A stretch of 45,226 nt of DNA. It comes from a virus. How positions within the stretch are numbered: the first letter of the stretch is position 1; each line of letters opens with the position of its first letter. The DNA lies in the IMG/VR virus record IMGVR_UViG_3300045988_098743, positions 1 through 45,226 of that record. One strand, given 5' to 3'. Below the pieces are notes generated by a model that saw nothing but the letters and a program-made list of their open reading frames with translations, was not told the DNA's origin and did not search any database. This document shows, piece by piece, positions 18,880 to 45,149 of this stretch. The position numbers and the translations under genes are program-made.

Positions 18880-18955
18880 TGGAGGGGCTAGTTGGATTTG
18901 AACCAACGTTCAAAGTTTTGCAGACTTTTGCCTTAACCAACTTGGCTATAGCCCC
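18880..18955 (-). tRNA. tRNA-Cys (anticodon GCA), encoded CCA
   Basis: Cloverleaf folded by hand: 7-bp acceptor stem GGGGCUA/UAGCCCC, T-loop UUCAAAU with a 5-bp stem, 5-bp anticodon stem AAAGU/ACUUU with loop CUGCAAA. Confidence 0.85.
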
Positions 18956-35585: not shown

Positions 35586-36182
35586 CTATTTATTTTCTTG
35601 TTTTAAAAAGTCTTCATACGTTTTAGGTTTATTTTGTTCATCATCTTTACCTTTACTTTCAGGTGGTTTTTGTTTAAATGAATTATTTAACCATGTTTCC
35701 TTATCTTTGCTTAAGTTAGTTGATAACAATTCTACCTTACTAAGTATTTCTTCTGCACTAGAATTTTTAAAATCAAATAAGTCAATATAATTTAATGGAA
35801 TACTTTTTTCGTTTAAGATTTTCATTGTTTCATCTTTTAATTCCCTAGCATTAACTTTTTCTTCTAATTCTTTAATTCTAGTATCTTTTTTAGCCATTTC
35901 TTCTTTAACTTTTTCAGCCTCAGATAATTTAGCTACTCTTTCAGCTTCAGTTTTCTCTGCTTCTAATTTAGCTTTATAATCGGTTTCCCATTTAGTTCTT
36001 GCAGTTTCTAAACTTTTAGCCACTCTTTTATCAAATTCACTTTGATAAGTTTTATCGCTTAATATTTCGTCAAATGTTAAAGGTTTTTCCTCTTTATCTT
36101 CAGGCTCACTAGTAACATTTTCCTTTTCATCAGCAAATAATTGGATATTTAATCTTAATCCTAGTTTTTGTTCCTCTTTCAT
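35586..36182 (-). CDS. scaffolding protein
   Basis: 198 aa, highly charged E/K coiled coil, immediately upstream of the capsid gene. Confidence 0.6.
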   Translation of the reverse strand: MKEEQKLGLRLNIQLFADEKENVTSEPEDKEEKPLTFDEILSDKTYQSEFDKRVAKSLETARTKWETDYKAKLEAEKTEAERVAKLSEAEKVKEEMAKKDTRIKELEEKVNARELKDETMKILNEKSIPLNYIDLFDFKNSSAEEILSKVELLSTNLSKDKETWLNNSFKQKPPESKGKDDEQNKPKTYEDFLKQENK

Positions 36183-36248
36183 TGTATTTCCTCCTTTACC
36201 CCAGCCTGTTGTTTTGCCCCCAAGCCATTGTATTTTTTAAACAAAAAA

Positions 36249-36271
36249 GAACCAAACATATCGTTTGGTCC
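36249..36271 (-). promoter_or_regulatory. hairpin plus U-tract in the leader between the late promoter and the scaffold gene (possible attenuator)
   Basis: ACCAAAC-GAUAU-GUUUGGU hairpin then UUCUUUUUUGUUU on the minus strand. Confidence 0.35.
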
Positions 36272-36303
36272 TCTGGGAACTCTGGTATTTCTTACCTAAA
36301 TAC

Positions 36304-36331
36304 ATTATAGCATATCTTTTCTTTTTGTCAA
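36304..36331 (-). promoter_or_regulatory. late structural-operon promoter TTGACA-N16-TGcTATAAT
   Basis: -35 TTGACA at 36331..36326, -10 TATAAT at 36309..36304. Confidence 0.6.
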
Positions 36332-36334
36332 TAA

Positions 36335-36360
36335 ACAAAAAACACCTAATTATAGGTGTT
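36335..36360 (-). terminator. strong intrinsic terminator ending the ORF-free transcription unit
   Basis: AACACCUA-UAAU-UAGGUGUU hairpin followed by UUUUGUUUA. Confidence 0.7.
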
Positions 36361-37444
36361 ATCTGTAATATGTAGAGATACATTTAAGCTACTAAACCGT
36401 ATCTCTTTTTTAATATTATGTGATAATGACGTGCATGTTTGAAGTTTTTCCTTTACTTATATTATTTACCTTTATGGTATACCACATCATTATCGCCTTG
36501 TAAGGAGTAAAGCACTAGTATCTTTAATAGATACTGTCTAATGATATATCTCCCTTTAATCAAGAATAAGATACACGTATCTAACATATATGCTCTTTGC
36601 AAAGATTTGGAGTTGGTGATTAAAGTCTTTTTACCTTAACTTGCGAACCATTTTCTCAACATATATGTATATCACTAGACACTATCTACTAAGATAGTGA
36701 ATTCCCGTACCAATAGGGAATTAAACAAACTCTTTAAAATATTTGAAGAACTAATTTAATAAATCAGTTCCAGTGCCTTATAGACACCATAGAATAGATA
36801 TAGACTACCGTTCTGGAGGTAATTACTCTCCGATTTACGTTTTCGTAGTCGCCCTAACGCTCGCTTTTATATCTACTCTATGCTACCTAAAAGAGATAGC
36901 ATTCCCTTTATGGGAATAAATTAACACATAATCACATATGATTGGTACTTTATAAGTACCTTAGAACAGATATATTGGATTTCTGAGCTTCAAATCTCCA
37001 CGGAACTTAGTCGACTTATAACCTTTCCCTCCTAAAGTTTTTATATATCCATTCTAAGCTACCTACAAGGTAGCCCACTACTTTATATTATTCACTTAAC
37101 ACCAGTGAAAGAATTAAGTTTTCATATATTTCATGTAGACGACTTAGTTCACTGTCTAGGGTATTAGTCGTTTTCCCTACCTTTAAACTAAGGCTTCATT
37201 ACTATTACTAGTGGCACTAGTGACTTCACGATGCCCATGCAAACACAGGATTTTATGTGTTTTCCTAGAGTAATATGCGTGTTTAATCAAATGTCTTATA
37301 AACACCTAGTAGTAAAGGATGGAATGTTATATATATAACGGTAGTACTAAGTAAGAATGTTGTCCTTTACTACGAGTTGCTTATAAGTGCTTTTTTAATC
37401 TAAAACACTCTTCAAAAAATATTTTTGCCTTATTTGTTATCGGC
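36361..37444 (-). ncRNA. candidate large structured noncoding RNA (~1.1 kb, GC-enriched, ORF-free) bracketed by a dedicated promoter and terminator
   Basis: - No ORF of 60 aa or more on either strand across 36183-37486.
- Locally raised GC.
- Many stem-loops, including two TTCCC...GGGAA hairpins, GGTACTT..AAGTACC and GCTACC..GGTAGC.
- Promoter copy 4 at 37451-37479 and the terminator at 36335-36360. Confidence 0.4.
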
Positions 37445-37450
37445 ATTATC

Positions 37451-37488
37451 ATTATATTATATTTTTAGTAAAATGTAAACACTTTTTT
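37451..37488 (-). promoter_or_regulatory. early-family promoter, copy 4 (AAAAAAGTGTTTACA-N17-TATAAT), firing into the ORF-free region
   Basis: -35 TTTACA at 37479..37474, -10 TATAAT at 37456..37451. Confidence 0.5.
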
Positions 37489-37885
37489 AAAATTTATTTC
37501 TTTTTGTATATTCTGGTTTTATTATTAGTTTTTTCTTTTTATTTCTTTCTCCACAATGTTCTCTTTCAAAATATGTTAAACAATCATCTATAAACCTTAT
37601 ACTTTGTATATCTAAATATCCTTGCCTATTTTCTTCTATCATTTTCATTGTTATGGCTTGAAATAACTCATTGTCCTTTGCTTCTATTAAATGCAAATAA
37701 GGATGAGAAGATTTGCCACATAAAATTGCTCCATTTTCACGTGTTATCTTCCCACCCTCACGGTTTGGTATTATTAAATGATGATATGTATATATGTCGT
37801 CTTTTTGCAGACTATACCCCATAAAATCATATCCTAATTCTTTTATCTTAAACTCTCTTAACATTAGAATAGTCGTTTGTTTCAA
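37487..37885 (-). CDS. HNH homing endonuclease
   Basis: YHHLIIPNREGG...NGAILCGKSSHPYLH HNH motif. Confidence 0.65.
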   Translation of the reverse strand: MKQTTILMLREFKIKELGYDFMGYSLQKDDIYTYHHLIIPNREGGKITRENGAILCGKSSHPYLHLIEAKDNELFQAITMKMIEENRQGYLDIQSIRFIDDCLTYFEREHCGERNKKKKLIIKPEYTKRNKF

Positions 37886-37971: not shown

Positions 37972-38000
37972 CATTATACTATGGTTTTATTTTTTGTCAA
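37972..38000 (-). promoter_or_regulatory. second consensus promoter TTGACA-N17-TATAAT in tandem
   Basis: -35 at 38000..37995, -10 at 37977..37972. Confidence 0.5.
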
Positions 38001-38089
38001 TCTTTACTATCTTTTTACATTTATAACATTTTATTTCTATAGTACCTTTAAAATTACCTTTAAATAATAATTTATGACAATGTGGACAT

Positions 38090-38782
38090 CTAGTTTCCTG
38101 CATTTTCCACCTCGACATACTCAAAATGATAACCTTTGCAACTTTTAAATCCATATTCTTTTTTTAATACTCTCATAATTGTTCTTCTATCAACTCCTAA
38201 TTTTTCCGACACATCTCTCGTTCCTCTATATATCTTATTATTTTCTAAGCATTTAATTAATTTTATTTTTCTTGTAACCTTTATTTTATTTCTAAAACTA
38301 TCATCAAATGTTTTTCCTTTATTCGGTGATATTCTTCCTGTTGCTTTTTTAGACATCATTTCTCTATAACCTGGTTGTTGCCATACTTTTTTAGCACTAT
38401 CACTCATTTTCTTTCTTATTTCTTTTGTATATATTAGTGGTTTCCTATTTGTTTTTTGTTTTTCTATTTGTTCTTTAGTGTGTTTATACCCCTTAGAACT
38501 TTCTCCACCCTTTGATAAATTATAACCATATAATGGATTTGATGTATTATATTTGGCGATTAATTCTATTTCTTTTTGTTTTGCTTCTTTTTCGGTTAAA
38601 TTTTCAAATAAAATAATATGTTTTATATTATTCCAACCATACTTTTTTATCGCACTTTCAAAATGCTTATTATTAGAATATCCGTTTCCACTTCTCCACC
38701 GATTATTTGGATTTATTTTTGACGTTATTCCTATATAATATTTATTATTAGGAGTTTTGTGCATATAAACTATATATTTCAT
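38090..38782 (-). CDS. GIY-YIG homing endonuclease with NUMOD-type DNA-binding repeats
   Basis: KYIVYMHKTPNNKYYIGITS GIY-YIG, NNRWRSG, catalytic E region, C-terminal KGYKHTKEQIEK / SPNKGKTF repeats. Confidence 0.8.
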   Translation of the reverse strand: MKYIVYMHKTPNNKYYIGITSKINPNNRWRSGNGYSNNKHFESAIKKYGWNNIKHIILFENLTEKEAKQKEIELIAKYNTSNPLYGYNLSKGGESSKGYKHTKEQIEKQKTNRKPLIYTKEIRKKMSDSAKKVWQQPGYREMMSKKATGRISPNKGKTFDDSFRNKIKVTRKIKLIKCLENNKIYRGTRDVSEKLGVDRRTIMRVLKKEYGFKSCKGYHFEYVEVENAGN

Positions 38783-43727: not shown

Positions 43728-43829
43728 ATATTCTCCTTTTTATTTGGCAGAGGTTCTAGGTTATGCTCCCAGTTCTTCGGATTTGGAGCCCGATATTTTT
43801 CTAATTAAACTAAACCTCTATAAAGCATC

Positions 43830-44059: not shown

Positions 44060-45145
44060 TTATTCTCCTAATTGTTTTATTAATTTAAATGCCTCTTCTA
44101 TTGTTTTGTCCATATCAAAATATTTATATTGTCCTAATCTTCCAGCAAATATAACTTTATCATTTTTAATTTTAGCATATTTTTGGTATAATTTTTCATT
44201 TTTTTTATCGTTTATAGGATAATAAGCGTTTTCTCCATCATATTTACAAGGATATTCCTTTGTTATTATAGTTTTTTTACTTATACAATTAGCAAAATGT
44301 TTATGTTCTATAATTCTAGTATAAGGTATTCGCTTCTCTGTATAATTTATTACTGCATTGCCTTGAAAATTTTCTACATTTAAAGTTTCTTCTTGAAAAC
44401 GTAAACTACGGTATTCAAGTTTACCATAAATATAGTCATAATAAGCATCTATTTGCCCTGTGTAAATTATCTTTTTACATTTATTATTATAATATTCTTT
44501 ATTTTTTATATAATCTCTATTAAGTTTCACATCTATGCCTTTTAACATGTTTTGAATTATAGTTGTATATCCGTGTTCTGGTATACCTTGGAATTTAGCA
44601 TTAAAATAGTTATTATTATAGGTTAATCTTACTGGAAGTCTTTTTATGATAGATGCTGGTAATTTTTTACACTTTTTGCCCCATTGTTTTTCTGTATATC
44701 CTTTAATTAAAATTTTATAAACATCTTTGCCCACCATAGAGATTGCTTGTTCTTCTAAATTAGTAATTTTTTTTATTTTTCTTTTTTGTTTATTTATTTT
44801 ATCTAAAACTTTTTTTGGAGTATTTGTATTTTTCCATATTTTAGTAAAAGTGTTCATATTAAATGGTAAATTATAAACTTTATTTTTATAAATTGCTATT
44901 GGCTCATTTATAAAACTATTAAATTTATCAAATTTATTTATATAATCCCAAACGTCTTTATTATTAGTATGAAATATATGAGCACCATATTTATGTATAT
45001 AAATATTATGTTTTTTCTCTGTATATATATTTCCACCAATATGATTTCTTTTATCTATAACTAAACACTTTTTCCCTCTATCGGTTAACTCTCTAGCCAC
45101 TATACTTCCATATAATCCTGCTCCTACAATTAAATAATCATACAT
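44060..45145 (-). CDS. glf: UDP-galactopyranose mutase
   Basis: - Near full-length match to Glf: MYDYLIVGAGLYGS FAD-binding motif, HIGGNIYT, HKYGAHIFHT, NLEEQAISMVGKDVY, IKGYTEKQWG, YTRIIEHKHF, YYPINDKKN.
- Probable start at ATG 45145; the track's TTG at 45148 is 1 codon upstream. Confidence 0.9.
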   Translation of the reverse strand: MYDYLIVGAGLYGSIVARELTDRGKKCLVIDKRNHIGGNIYTEKKHNIYIHKYGAHIFHTNNKDVWDYINKFDKFNSFINEPIAIYKNKVYNLPFNMNTFTKIWKNTNTPKKVLDKINKQKRKIKKITNLEEQAISMVGKDVYKILIKGYTEKQWGKKCKKLPASIIKRLPVRLTYNNNYFNAKFQGIPEHGYTTIIQNMLKGIDVKLNRDYIKNKEYYNNKCKKIIYTGQIDAYYDYIYGKLEYRSLRFQEETLNVENFQGNAVINYTEKRIPYTRIIEHKHFANCISKKTIITKEYPCKYDGENAYYPINDKKNEKLYQKYAKIKNDKVIFAGRLGQYKYFDMDKTIEEAFKLIKQLGE

Positions 45146-45149
45146 CAAA

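Follow-up and report, generated by a model that had tools for sequence, protein, structure and literature searches.

The gene-free stretch at positions 36183-37486 of the IMG/VR virus record IMGVR_UViG_3300045988_098743 probably encodes, on the minus strand, a polycistronic operon of small RNAs with processing frames that resemble tRNA punctuation, a reading to which we assign a probability of roughly 0.7. The record, 45,226 nt in length, was analyzed as a whole and is called the window in the following. The RNA array can be viewed as a phage "tRNA island" without a canonical tRNA. It would extend from about position 37450 to a terminator-like hairpin at 36341-36360 and would comprise seven or more modules that fold locally, and three of these share a common frame. 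Our confidence in an array of RNAs is fairly high, and it is low to moderate for the mechanism of processing.

The siphophage-like genome has a size of 45 kb and a GC content of 27.8%, and nearly all of its genes are on the minus strand. The gene-free stretch has 1304 nt, is flanked by the gene for a 132-aa protein (37487-37885) and the scaffold gene (DUF4355, 35586-36182), and is the largest stretch of the window without an open reading frame (ORF) of at least 50 aa on either strand. The second-longest internal ORF-free stretch has 279 nt (1696-1974). Both values are in agreement with a preliminary description of this DNA, which had reported about 1.3 kb without ORFs and a next-longest non-coding stretch of about 280 bp. 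That description had also stated that the GC content is visibly higher than in the surroundings. The enrichment is real, with 0.318 for 36183-37486 and 0.336 for its core (36514-37267) compared to a window mean of 0.278, but it is modest: the stretch is at the 92nd percentile among segments of 1304 nt, and the capsid gene is equally GC-rich.

Much more pronounced is the folding of the region. The fold z-score of the array (36365-37450) is -9.1 for the minus strand and -5.9 for the plus strand, while six coding controls had z-scores between -1.2 and +1.4 on the minus strand and between -1.8 and +1.4 on both strands. The single modules have minus-strand z-scores from -2.4 to -5.7. The minimum free energy (MFE) of 36183-37486 is -364.9 kcal/mol for the minus versus -295.3 kcal/mol for the plus strand, and thus 70 kcal/mol lower for the strand that carries the genes. 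All helices are local, and the MFE structure is devoid of long-range helices other than trivial ones. Internal repeats are present in the form of several units, each of which has inverted arms of 25-30 nt at both ends.

Three of these units, designated B, A, and C, share a frame of three helices, namely, an 8-bp hairpin at the 5'-side (P1), a leader/trailer helix of 14-16 bp (P2), and a 6-7 bp hairpin at the 3'-side (P3). The helices adjoin directly, and no junction contains an unpaired base. P2 encloses a cargo of 20-213 nt, about 65-120 nt in the window, that differs between cassettes. In all three units P1 conforms to the consensus CACUAUCU-N3-7-AGGUAGUG or GCUAYCU..AGGUAGC and adjoins P2, and P3, which follows P2 directly, conforms to GUAUCU-AUUAA-AGAUAC or GGURYYUAUAARRYACC. 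The apex of P2, read on the gene strand, is always GAUAU(A)/(U)AUAUC, and the apical 6-7 bp (GAUAUA/UAUAUC, together with a discriminator-like A or G and UU) are the counterpart of a tRNA acceptor stem. When unit B is folded alone, the structure P1-P2(cargo)-P3 is obtained without a single unpaired junction base (z = -5.3). The density of stem-loops pointed out in the preliminary description is in line with these results, and every hairpin it named exists. The GCTACC/GGTAGC hairpin (37058-37074) is P1 and the GGTACTT/AAGTACC hairpin (36944-36960) is P3 of unit B, the two TTCCC...GGGAA hairpins (36702-36720 and 36901-36917) are linker hairpins between units, and the ACTAGTGGCACTAGT dyad lies within the variable part of an unframed module, designated module D.

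The frame is specific for such arrays. A generic frame detector found exactly three frames in the 45-kb window (36533-36683, 36787-36883, and 36959-37059), every one of them on the minus strand and within the gene-free stretch. The control, capsid-related loci with a total of 927 kb, yielded a single frame, and this is located inside a genuine array in locus L002 (related loci are designated L with a number). Across loci, 62 frames are on the gene strand versus 11 on the opposite strand, most of the latter being perfect helices that were counted on both strands. A 25-mer from the region matches four IMG/VR contigs, and BLAST comparison of these contigs revealed pieces of about 120 nt with 94-99% identity in varying order and combination. 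Two probes were used to harvest further frames. A 20-mer covering the 3'-arm of P2 plus P3 of type C yielded 50 IMG/VR stretches and nine contigs of gut metagenome-assembled genomes, and a degenerate 24-mer for the 3'-side of the A/B type yielded 110 further IMG/VR stretches, so that both probes together gave about 160. The sources of the metagenome-assembled contigs include Coprobacillaceae, uncultured Bacilli, 'Tenericutes', Clostridium sp. CAG:1000, Ca. Onthocola, and others. In most phages the array is situated, together with tRNAs, between an early/regulatory gene and a gene for the small terminase (terS) or an HNH-like protein. The position in the window, between head-morphogenesis and scaffold genes, is atypical; in L002 the array precedes terS, and the gap between the minor-head and scaffold genes has just 228 nt. 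At least eight related loci have a terminator-like hairpin with a T-run directly after the last framed unit, as judged by eye. In other loci the last cassette directly precedes the ribosome binding site (RBS) of the next gene.

The sequence variation of the frames was used to count base pairs, with frames that had been picked solely by the 3'-probe. The 23 distinct arm pairs of type-C P2 contain 291 Watson-Crick pairs, 26 G·U pairs, three A·C combinations, and two others. This corresponds to 98.4% pairing, compared to 65.5 ± 4.9% after shuffling of the partners. Very similar distributions were obtained for 35 distinct P1 hairpins of type C (233 Watson-Crick, 35 G·U, one A·C, 11 other) and for 14 distinct P2 arm pairs of the A/B type (177, 14, one, and four, respectively). 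P2 was counted with an anchored script, because cargo-masked MAFFT alignments of the frames were out of register for this helix, and P1 additionally with a pair-counting tool. Across 46 frames P1 is 96.7% paired, and four of its eight pairs have changed on both sides; slid controls are 20-47% paired. The covariation score of P1 is 0.298 versus 0.172, and none of 500 shuffles reached the score of P1. As far as can be told from sequence variation, these counts show that the frame is under base-pairing selection on the gene strand.

In contrast to the frame, the cargoes are hypervariable. The 85 distinct cargoes of a first set fall into 49 clusters, and the 93 of a second set into 65 clusters, and the frames carry roughly 100 unrelated cargo families. 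One cargo family can occur in different frame types, and the homologs of module D retain an invariant hairpin and two compensatory pairs. The families are real entities. Module D has seven homologs with 70-90% identity (L081, L083, L086, L102, L115, L117, and L124), usually beside a tRNA, and RNAalifold predicts 28 pairs, two of which show the compensatory changes. Copies of unit A with 94-99% identity are present in L081-L084, and the cargo of unit C recurs with 97-99% identity in L094, L104, L109, L111, and L134. The cargo of unit B was found only in this phage lineage; a frame of the same type in L101 holds a tRNA-like RNA. The linker between units A and C is kept in L128 (94%) and L084 (78%) and is replaced in the close relatives L147 and L142. 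Otherwise unrelated cargoes, e.g., in L092, L103, L106, L142, and unit B (36975-37041), often share a frame-proximal base, which consists of GAUAUAUAAA, a short G-rich bulge, and AAAGGUU near the 5'-side; the 5'-side pairs with AAACCUUUAUAUC at the 3'-end. Therefore, the conserved core may be larger than P1-P2-P3.

A direct connection to tRNAs is provided by several cargoes. L135 contains a cloverleaf tRNA (1493-1564) in a frame, the apex of which forms the acceptor stem; it has the unusual anticodon AUA. Framed tRNA-like RNAs, again with the frame apex as acceptor stem, are present in L101 (6023-6113), L105 (1384-1474), and L106 (5658-5781). Their D and T arms are normal, while the anticodon domain has 34 or 66 nt. 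The L106-type RNA recurs seven times in IMG/VR, and further cargoes contain fragments of a T arm or an anticodon arm. The CCA end is not encoded in the framed RNAs, in contrast to the unframed tRNAs of L081, L083, and L084, where it can be read from the sequence. It should be noted that cargoes are not tRNAs in general, because ARAGORN identified none among 49 type-C modules, and a T arm is present in only 4-5 of 92. A role as Shine-Dalgarno-like decoys for ribosomes was also considered for the cargoes and rejected, as GGAGG and related motifs are not enriched in them.

Not only the cargoes but also the neighborhood links the arrays to known islands of stable RNAs. tRNAs adjoin the arrays in many loci, and the large RNA ROOL is present beside frames in four of 31 scanned loci, with scores of 149-170 bits. 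In three of the four (L094, L109, and L134) a tRNA is directly upstream of ROOL. In L103 and L109, the flanks of which were read, ROOL has a closing leader/trailer helix of its own of about 25 bp. The composition of these arrays shows that the array of the window is, by homology, kin to tRNA/ROOL islands.

Comparison with very close relatives revealed the dynamics of the system. L141-L147 encode a 132-aa protein that is identical or 98% identical to that of the window, and the two loci that are long enough, L142 and L147, have the same layout. Flanking sequences of the array have retained 94-100% identity to the window in these phages. The segments comprising the promoter, hairpin H1, module D, the tail, and the terminator are 96-99% identical to the window in L147, 97-100% in L142, and 92-99% in L141 (in which the terminator segment is not covered). 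The cargo of unit A is 97% identical in L147, 32% in L142, and 40% in L141; the respective values are 79, 93, and 27% for unit B and 100, 39, and 0% for unit C. In L142, L144, and L145 the cargo of unit A is replaced by an unrelated cargo of 96 nt, while the frame is kept. Linkers are likewise replaced, and the frames stay. Single nucleotide polymorphisms (SNPs) in helices are few, and most of them are A-to-G or C-to-U changes that preserve G·U pairs on the minus strand. For example, two C-to-U SNPs in unit A of L147 turn G-C pairs into G·U pairs on this strand. Hairpin H1 is 94-98% identical in close relatives, and among the three SNPs of its stem are two A-to-G changes by which a G·U pair is retained on the minus strand. 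For this strand its z-score is also lower (-5.7 versus -2.9 for the plus strand). The tail hairpins (z = -3.6) are 92-99% conserved, in close relatives only, and exact probes for H1 (a 22-mer) and the cargo of unit B had no match in IMG/VR. Together, these comparisons show what is best described as an exchange of cargoes among near-identical phages.

A possible mechanism would begin with transcription of the whole array as one precursor, which would then be cut within P2 by host endonucleases of the tRNA or rRNA type. Candidates are RNase P together with RNase Z, which might recognize the CCA-less acceptor-like end, or RNase III, which might act on the extended helix. Cleavage would free the cargo with the GAUAUA/UAUAUC stem as its closure. 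The upstream RNA would retain P1 as a protective 3'-cap and the downstream RNA would retain P3 as a protective 5'-cap, and this would explain that both hairpins abut P2 exactly. The conserved frame halves of about 35 nt might at the same time be portable homology arms, which would allow cargoes to be swapped by recombination between co-infecting phages, possibly stimulated by the neighboring homing endonuclease or endonucleases. The rapid turnover and the company of tRNAs and ROOL suggest that cargoes have roles in manipulating host translation or defense. In its most general form the proposal is that an RNA cassette system exists in gut phages that infect low-GC Bacilli, with a conserved three-helix frame of pre-tRNA origin that marks processing sites, caps the neighboring RNAs against exonucleases, and serves as a portable homology arm, with at least about 100 unrelated small structured RNAs that are expressed and rapidly exchanged, and with cargoes that, like ROOL next to them, act on host translation or immunity. 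This general form is tentative, and we give it somewhat less than even odds.

Several points weigh against the proposed RNA operon. Transcription of the array, its processing sites, and the stability of its RNAs are all features that we infer. Only about 5-15% of the cargoes look tRNA-like, and therefore it is uncertain whether RNase P and RNase Z would recognize the remainder. Promoter-like consensus matches are not more common in the window than in shuffled sequence, and the recurrent clusters of flanking genes did not contain a conserved protein partner beside the arrays. For H1, the cargo of unit B, and the tail hairpins, diverged homologs were not found, and the structures of these elements are predictions from thermodynamics alone. 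The paired percentages given above are somewhat inflated, because the scripts picked the best-pairing 5'-partner arm and, for P1, also the loop length; this choice affects neither the compensatory variants nor the surplus of G·U relative to A·C. Lastly, strand-specific G·T pairing would also fit hairpins in single-stranded DNA of the gene strand.

This last point leads to the view that the frames act as DNA. They could be the ends of non-autonomous mobile elements, similar to miniature inverted-repeat transposable elements (MITE) or palindrome-associated transposable elements (PATE) or in the style of IS200/IS605, or they could be recombination linkers, and the cargo would be passenger DNA. 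Inverted-repeat ends around variable inserts, the replacement of cargoes between near-identical genomes, the possible single-stranded DNA hairpins, and a UAUCU-N5-AGRUA core that is shared by P1 and P3, as if read by one protein, would be in agreement with this view. However, each genome has its frames in a single non-coding array and nowhere else (in the window three of three are in the region), their orientation always follows transcription, and tRNA and ROOL genes are interspersed with them. Moreover, the frame apex serves as the acceptor stem of cloverleaf tRNAs, cargo families are conserved, structured, and recur in different frames, and arrays end in terminator-like hairpins. The recurrent clusters of flanking genes include none that is transposase-like by eye, whereby no scan against protein families was made. 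Elements that act exclusively as DNA are thus unlikely. A role of the frames in recombination is compatible with an RNA operon and does not replace it, and DNA-level elements are possible agents of the exchange step.

The location of the array, just upstream of late genes in the window and of terS in most relatives, raises the question whether it is a cis-acting structured leader or attenuator of the downstream late operon (scaffold/capsid). In L082, L095, and L126 the last P3 is indeed located about 10 nt in front of an RBS. In the window, the array is separated from the scaffold gene by a terminator-like site and, in addition, by a perfect promoter match. The identity of the cargo is irrelevant to the downstream gene, and the same cassettes precede unrelated genes, so that a cis-acting function seems quite improbable.

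One large RNA of about 1.1 kb, ornate like ROOL or GOLLD, had been favored in the preliminary description. Several elements of this idea hold true: the region is non-coding, structured, oriented to the minus strand, and similar to an RNA transcription unit, and related arrays do contain ROOL. The length, the GC enrichment, the strong folding, and the phage context would also be appropriate. But the region is not a single RNA, since its modules are shuffled, duplicated, and individually replaced in other phages, the fold is local throughout, and no large-RNA family of Rfam matches even at E values up to 10, which makes this explanation highly improbable. A decayed, horizontally acquired protein gene, which had been named as the alternative, or a set of micropeptide genes deserves next to no weight: short ORFs do exist, e.g., a hydrophobic one of 48 aa (36773-36919, plus strand, antisense), but this lacks a start codon in the homologs of L083 and L084, no reading frame is conserved, Shine-Dalgarno-like motifs are not enriched in the cargoes, and conservation tracks base pairs, in which compensatory changes and changes to G·U occur.

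Searches for known families were negative. At gathering scores, Rfam 15 covariance models found only two tRNAs in the whole window, both outside of 36183-37486, and thus none of the candidates that had been suggested (GOLLD, ROOL, HEARO, OLE, raiA, or group I and group II introns) matches the region. In a permissive scan of 36100-37600 (E up to 10) the best E value was 0.38, with unrelated families only. ROOL (RF03087, gathering score 99.1 bits) was unmatched in the window and also in the permissive scan. That this test works is evident from L094, L103, L109, and L134, in which it detected ROOL with 149-170 bits. Neither ARAGORN nor RF00005 detected a tRNA in the array. A comparison with phage genomes, which had been recommended, did not reveal any match in INPHARED with blastn or megablast and thus no close DNA relative in this collection. 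A number of further identities were considered and rejected. A CRISPR array or a solitary repeat, as in RNA anti-CRISPRs, does not fit, because 28-37 nt direct repeats with spacers are absent, and CRISPR-DR4 gave a chance match to P1 of unit B with E = 6.5. An inverton is contradicted by 172 cargo matches in the same orientation versus two inverted ones, both of which are internal palindromes. Membership in the MITE or PATE classes does not agree with copies that are confined to one array, co-oriented with genes, and unrelated in their internal sequences. The CUGAUGA in some P2 arms is reminiscent of a hammerhead ribozyme, but variants have CUAGUGA, a GAA/cleavage-site core is missing, and the bases are paired, as judged by eye. 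A three-way junction similar to the packaging RNA of phi29 had no Rfam hit, and mimicry of Cas12a or Cas13 repeats by P1 or P3 was not supported by any resemblance by eye. Literature searches found no description of a frame-plus-cargo architecture in the searchable literature, and it is not contained in Rfam 15. The frames may partly be among the 10,006 unnamed viral structured-RNA candidates reported by Fremin in 2023 (PMC10690425).

The kind of locus is known, and the frame-plus-cargo architecture appears to be new. Islands of stable RNAs and tRNAs with ROOL or GOLLD have been described for phages (PMC5737381, PMC12286853). They share with the array of the window that they are non-coding, co-oriented clusters of stable RNAs in phages of low-GC Firmicutes-type hosts and that their function is unknown, and arrays homologous to that of the window contain tRNAs and bona fide ROOL beside frames. 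However, the array of the window is devoid of tRNA, ROOL, and GOLLD, its units have only 60-190 nt, and they combine a conserved frame with a hypervariable cargo, a combination for which no description was found for those islands. The locus shows that the inventory of such islands also includes many small structured RNAs that had not been listed before and that share one recognizable frame.

Parallels also exist to other systems. In the mitochondrial punctuation model, the TMER units of MHV68, which combine tRNA-like RNAs and pre-miRNAs, and the tRNA scaffold of Ponchon and Dardel, tRNAs or tRNA-like structures are linked to passenger RNAs. Similarly, an acceptor-stem-like helix would mark the excision site of the cargo in the frame, and the cargoes of L101, L105, and L106 resemble the tRNA scaffold in that the D and T arms are kept and the anticodon arm is replaced by 34-66 nt. 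These natural tRNA-scaffold chimeras may be of interest to RNA engineers. Differences are that most cargoes lack tRNA features and that, in contrast to ordinary pre-tRNAs, leader and trailer of the frame are base-paired and capped by two hairpins. The processing stalks of rRNA operons and the closing helices of ROOL likewise bracket a stable RNA with a long leader/trailer helix, and the frame would be compatible with RNase III-type excision. But P2, with 14-16 bp, is shorter, the sequence of its apex is conserved, and hairpins flank it. The tRNA gene cluster of phage T4 contains two small stable RNAs of unknown function, species 1 and 2 (rnaC and rnaD), which are co-transcribed with the tRNA genes. 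In the T4/T6 cluster the GIY-YIG homing endonuclease SegB drives inheritance or amplification of the RNA locus (PMC2330249, PMC13096335). By analogy, the proposed endonuclease-aided exchange of cargoes would mirror SegB, as a GIY-YIG gene that is present or absent among close relatives is located near the array (38090-38782). A sequence relation does not exist, and T4 has neither a repeated frame nor a cassette-like exchange of cargoes.

Integron cassettes and the anti-defense hot spots of phages share with the arrays a constant boundary, a variable content, and turnover between near-identical genomes. In contrast to integron cassettes, the cargo is a non-coding RNA, each cargo is enclosed by boundaries in inverted orientation, and an integrase and an attC R-box are absent. 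If the general proposal of a cassette system is true, the arrays would correspond, at the RNA level, to integron cassettes or anti-defense islands. Turnover of content between near-identical phages is the usual pattern of loci under conflict-driven selection. In any case, the frame offers a sequence handle with which hundreds of candidate phage RNAs can be harvested, processing enzymes can be found, and the role of ROOL-type islands can be probed. The elements of the array and the ROOL RNAs of related arrays are compiled in Table 1.

Table 1. Elements of the predicted RNA array and its borders in the window, and ROOL RNAs in related arrays.
Feature	Position	Strand	Characteristics
Promoter-like site (predicted)	37451-37479	minus	TTTACA-17-TATAAT, 11 of 12 positions match sigma-70; adjoins the stop codon of the upstream gene and points into the array
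Hairpin H1	37288-37390	minus	stem of about 25 bp around about 43 nt; not a standard frame type; inverted repeat I2
Module D	37075-37265	minus	unframed; invariant hairpin GGAAAACACAUAAAAUCCUGUGUUUG (37240-37265), variable stretch, conserved core of about 120 nt
Framed unit B	36942-37074	minus	P1 37058-37074; P2; cargo 36975-37041; P3 36944-36960
Linker hairpin	36901-36917	minus	AUUCCCAUAAAGGGAAU; between units B and A; also precedes A-type frames in L109, L101, and L108
Framed unit A	36772-36900	minus	P1 36880-36900; P2; cargo 36802-36866; P3 36772-36788; folds as P1-P2-P3
Linker A-C	36702-36771	minus	two small hairpins, 36747-36771 and 36702-36720
Framed unit C	36518-36699	minus	P1 36680-36699; P2 arms UGUCUAGUGAUAUA / UAUAUCAUUAGACA; cargo about 36549-36667; P3 GUAUCUAUUAAAGAUAC at 36518-36534
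Tail hairpins	36374-36494	minus	36422-36494 and 36374-36406; between last frame and terminator
Intrinsic-terminator-like hairpin	36341-36360	minus	AACACCUAUAAUUAGGUGUU plus U-run; presumed end of the RNA unit
Scaffold-gene leader	36183-36331	minus	outside the RNA array; perfect -35/-10 match 36304-36331, hairpin 36246-36274 in the 5' untranslated region, RBS
ROOL RNA in L094	11086-11688
ROOL RNA in L103	1356-1954
ROOL RNA in L109	10625-11226
ROOL RNA in L134	5975-6581

At the borders of the array, the preliminary description had placed a fourth copy of an early phage promoter. The 29-mer at 37451-37479 in fact occurs only once in the window, and its conservation in the close relatives L147, L142, and L141 is 99-100%. 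At the other end, the reported arrangement of a terminator that abuts a late promoter was found, with a hairpin plus T-run and a promoter match of 12 of 12 positions. The statement that this is the strongest terminator of the window is unsupported, as hairpins with more pairs are present at 36246-36274 (13) and 1797-1827 (14), and a ranking was not made. The former is a terminator-like hairpin of 13 bp with a T-run on the minus strand, located between the promoter match and the RBS of the scaffold gene, and it could be an attenuator or a stabilizer of the late transcript.

The 132-aa protein encoded upstream of the array had been described as an HNH endonuclease. The only indication is a sub-threshold Pfam HNH match (E = 0.052), weaker than claimed, and neither a Pfam or PHROG match at 1e-3 nor a relative in the PDB was found. 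Its family comprises about 1,400 proteins, all unannotated, and homologs of the 132-aa protein adjoin arrays in L094, L109, L128, and L134. The GIY-YIG gene (minus strand) is present in L141 and L147 and absent from L142 and L143, although all four have the identical or 98% identical 132-aa neighbor, a polymorphism that would be typical of an active homing element. Upstream of the gene for the 132-aa protein is a small zinc-ribbon ORF (37987-38154, minus strand) with similarity to Mu Com-type translational regulators (PHROG 6417 and 13819; E = 3e-07), of which a 38-aa version was called in L142, L143, and L147.

Three further observations concern other parts of the genome or its homologs. The two tRNA genes of the window, both on the minus strand, encode tRNA-Trp(CCA) at 43745-43819 and tRNA-Cys(GCA) at 18880-18955; the former is located upstream of the terminase genes, near the site of the RNA arrays in related phages, has a score of only 45.9 bits, and has an atypical T-loop. 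The gene at 44060-45148 on the minus strand codes for a UDP-galactopyranose mutase (GLF, E = 4e-77) and may be an accessory gene for the modification of surface polysaccharides. Lastly, the capsid homolog of the Fusobacterium phage phiPaco (OR492274.1, 30641-31813) matches in two pieces and occupies 1173 bp for 330 aa, which suggests that the gene contains an insertion, perhaps an intron or an intein-like element.

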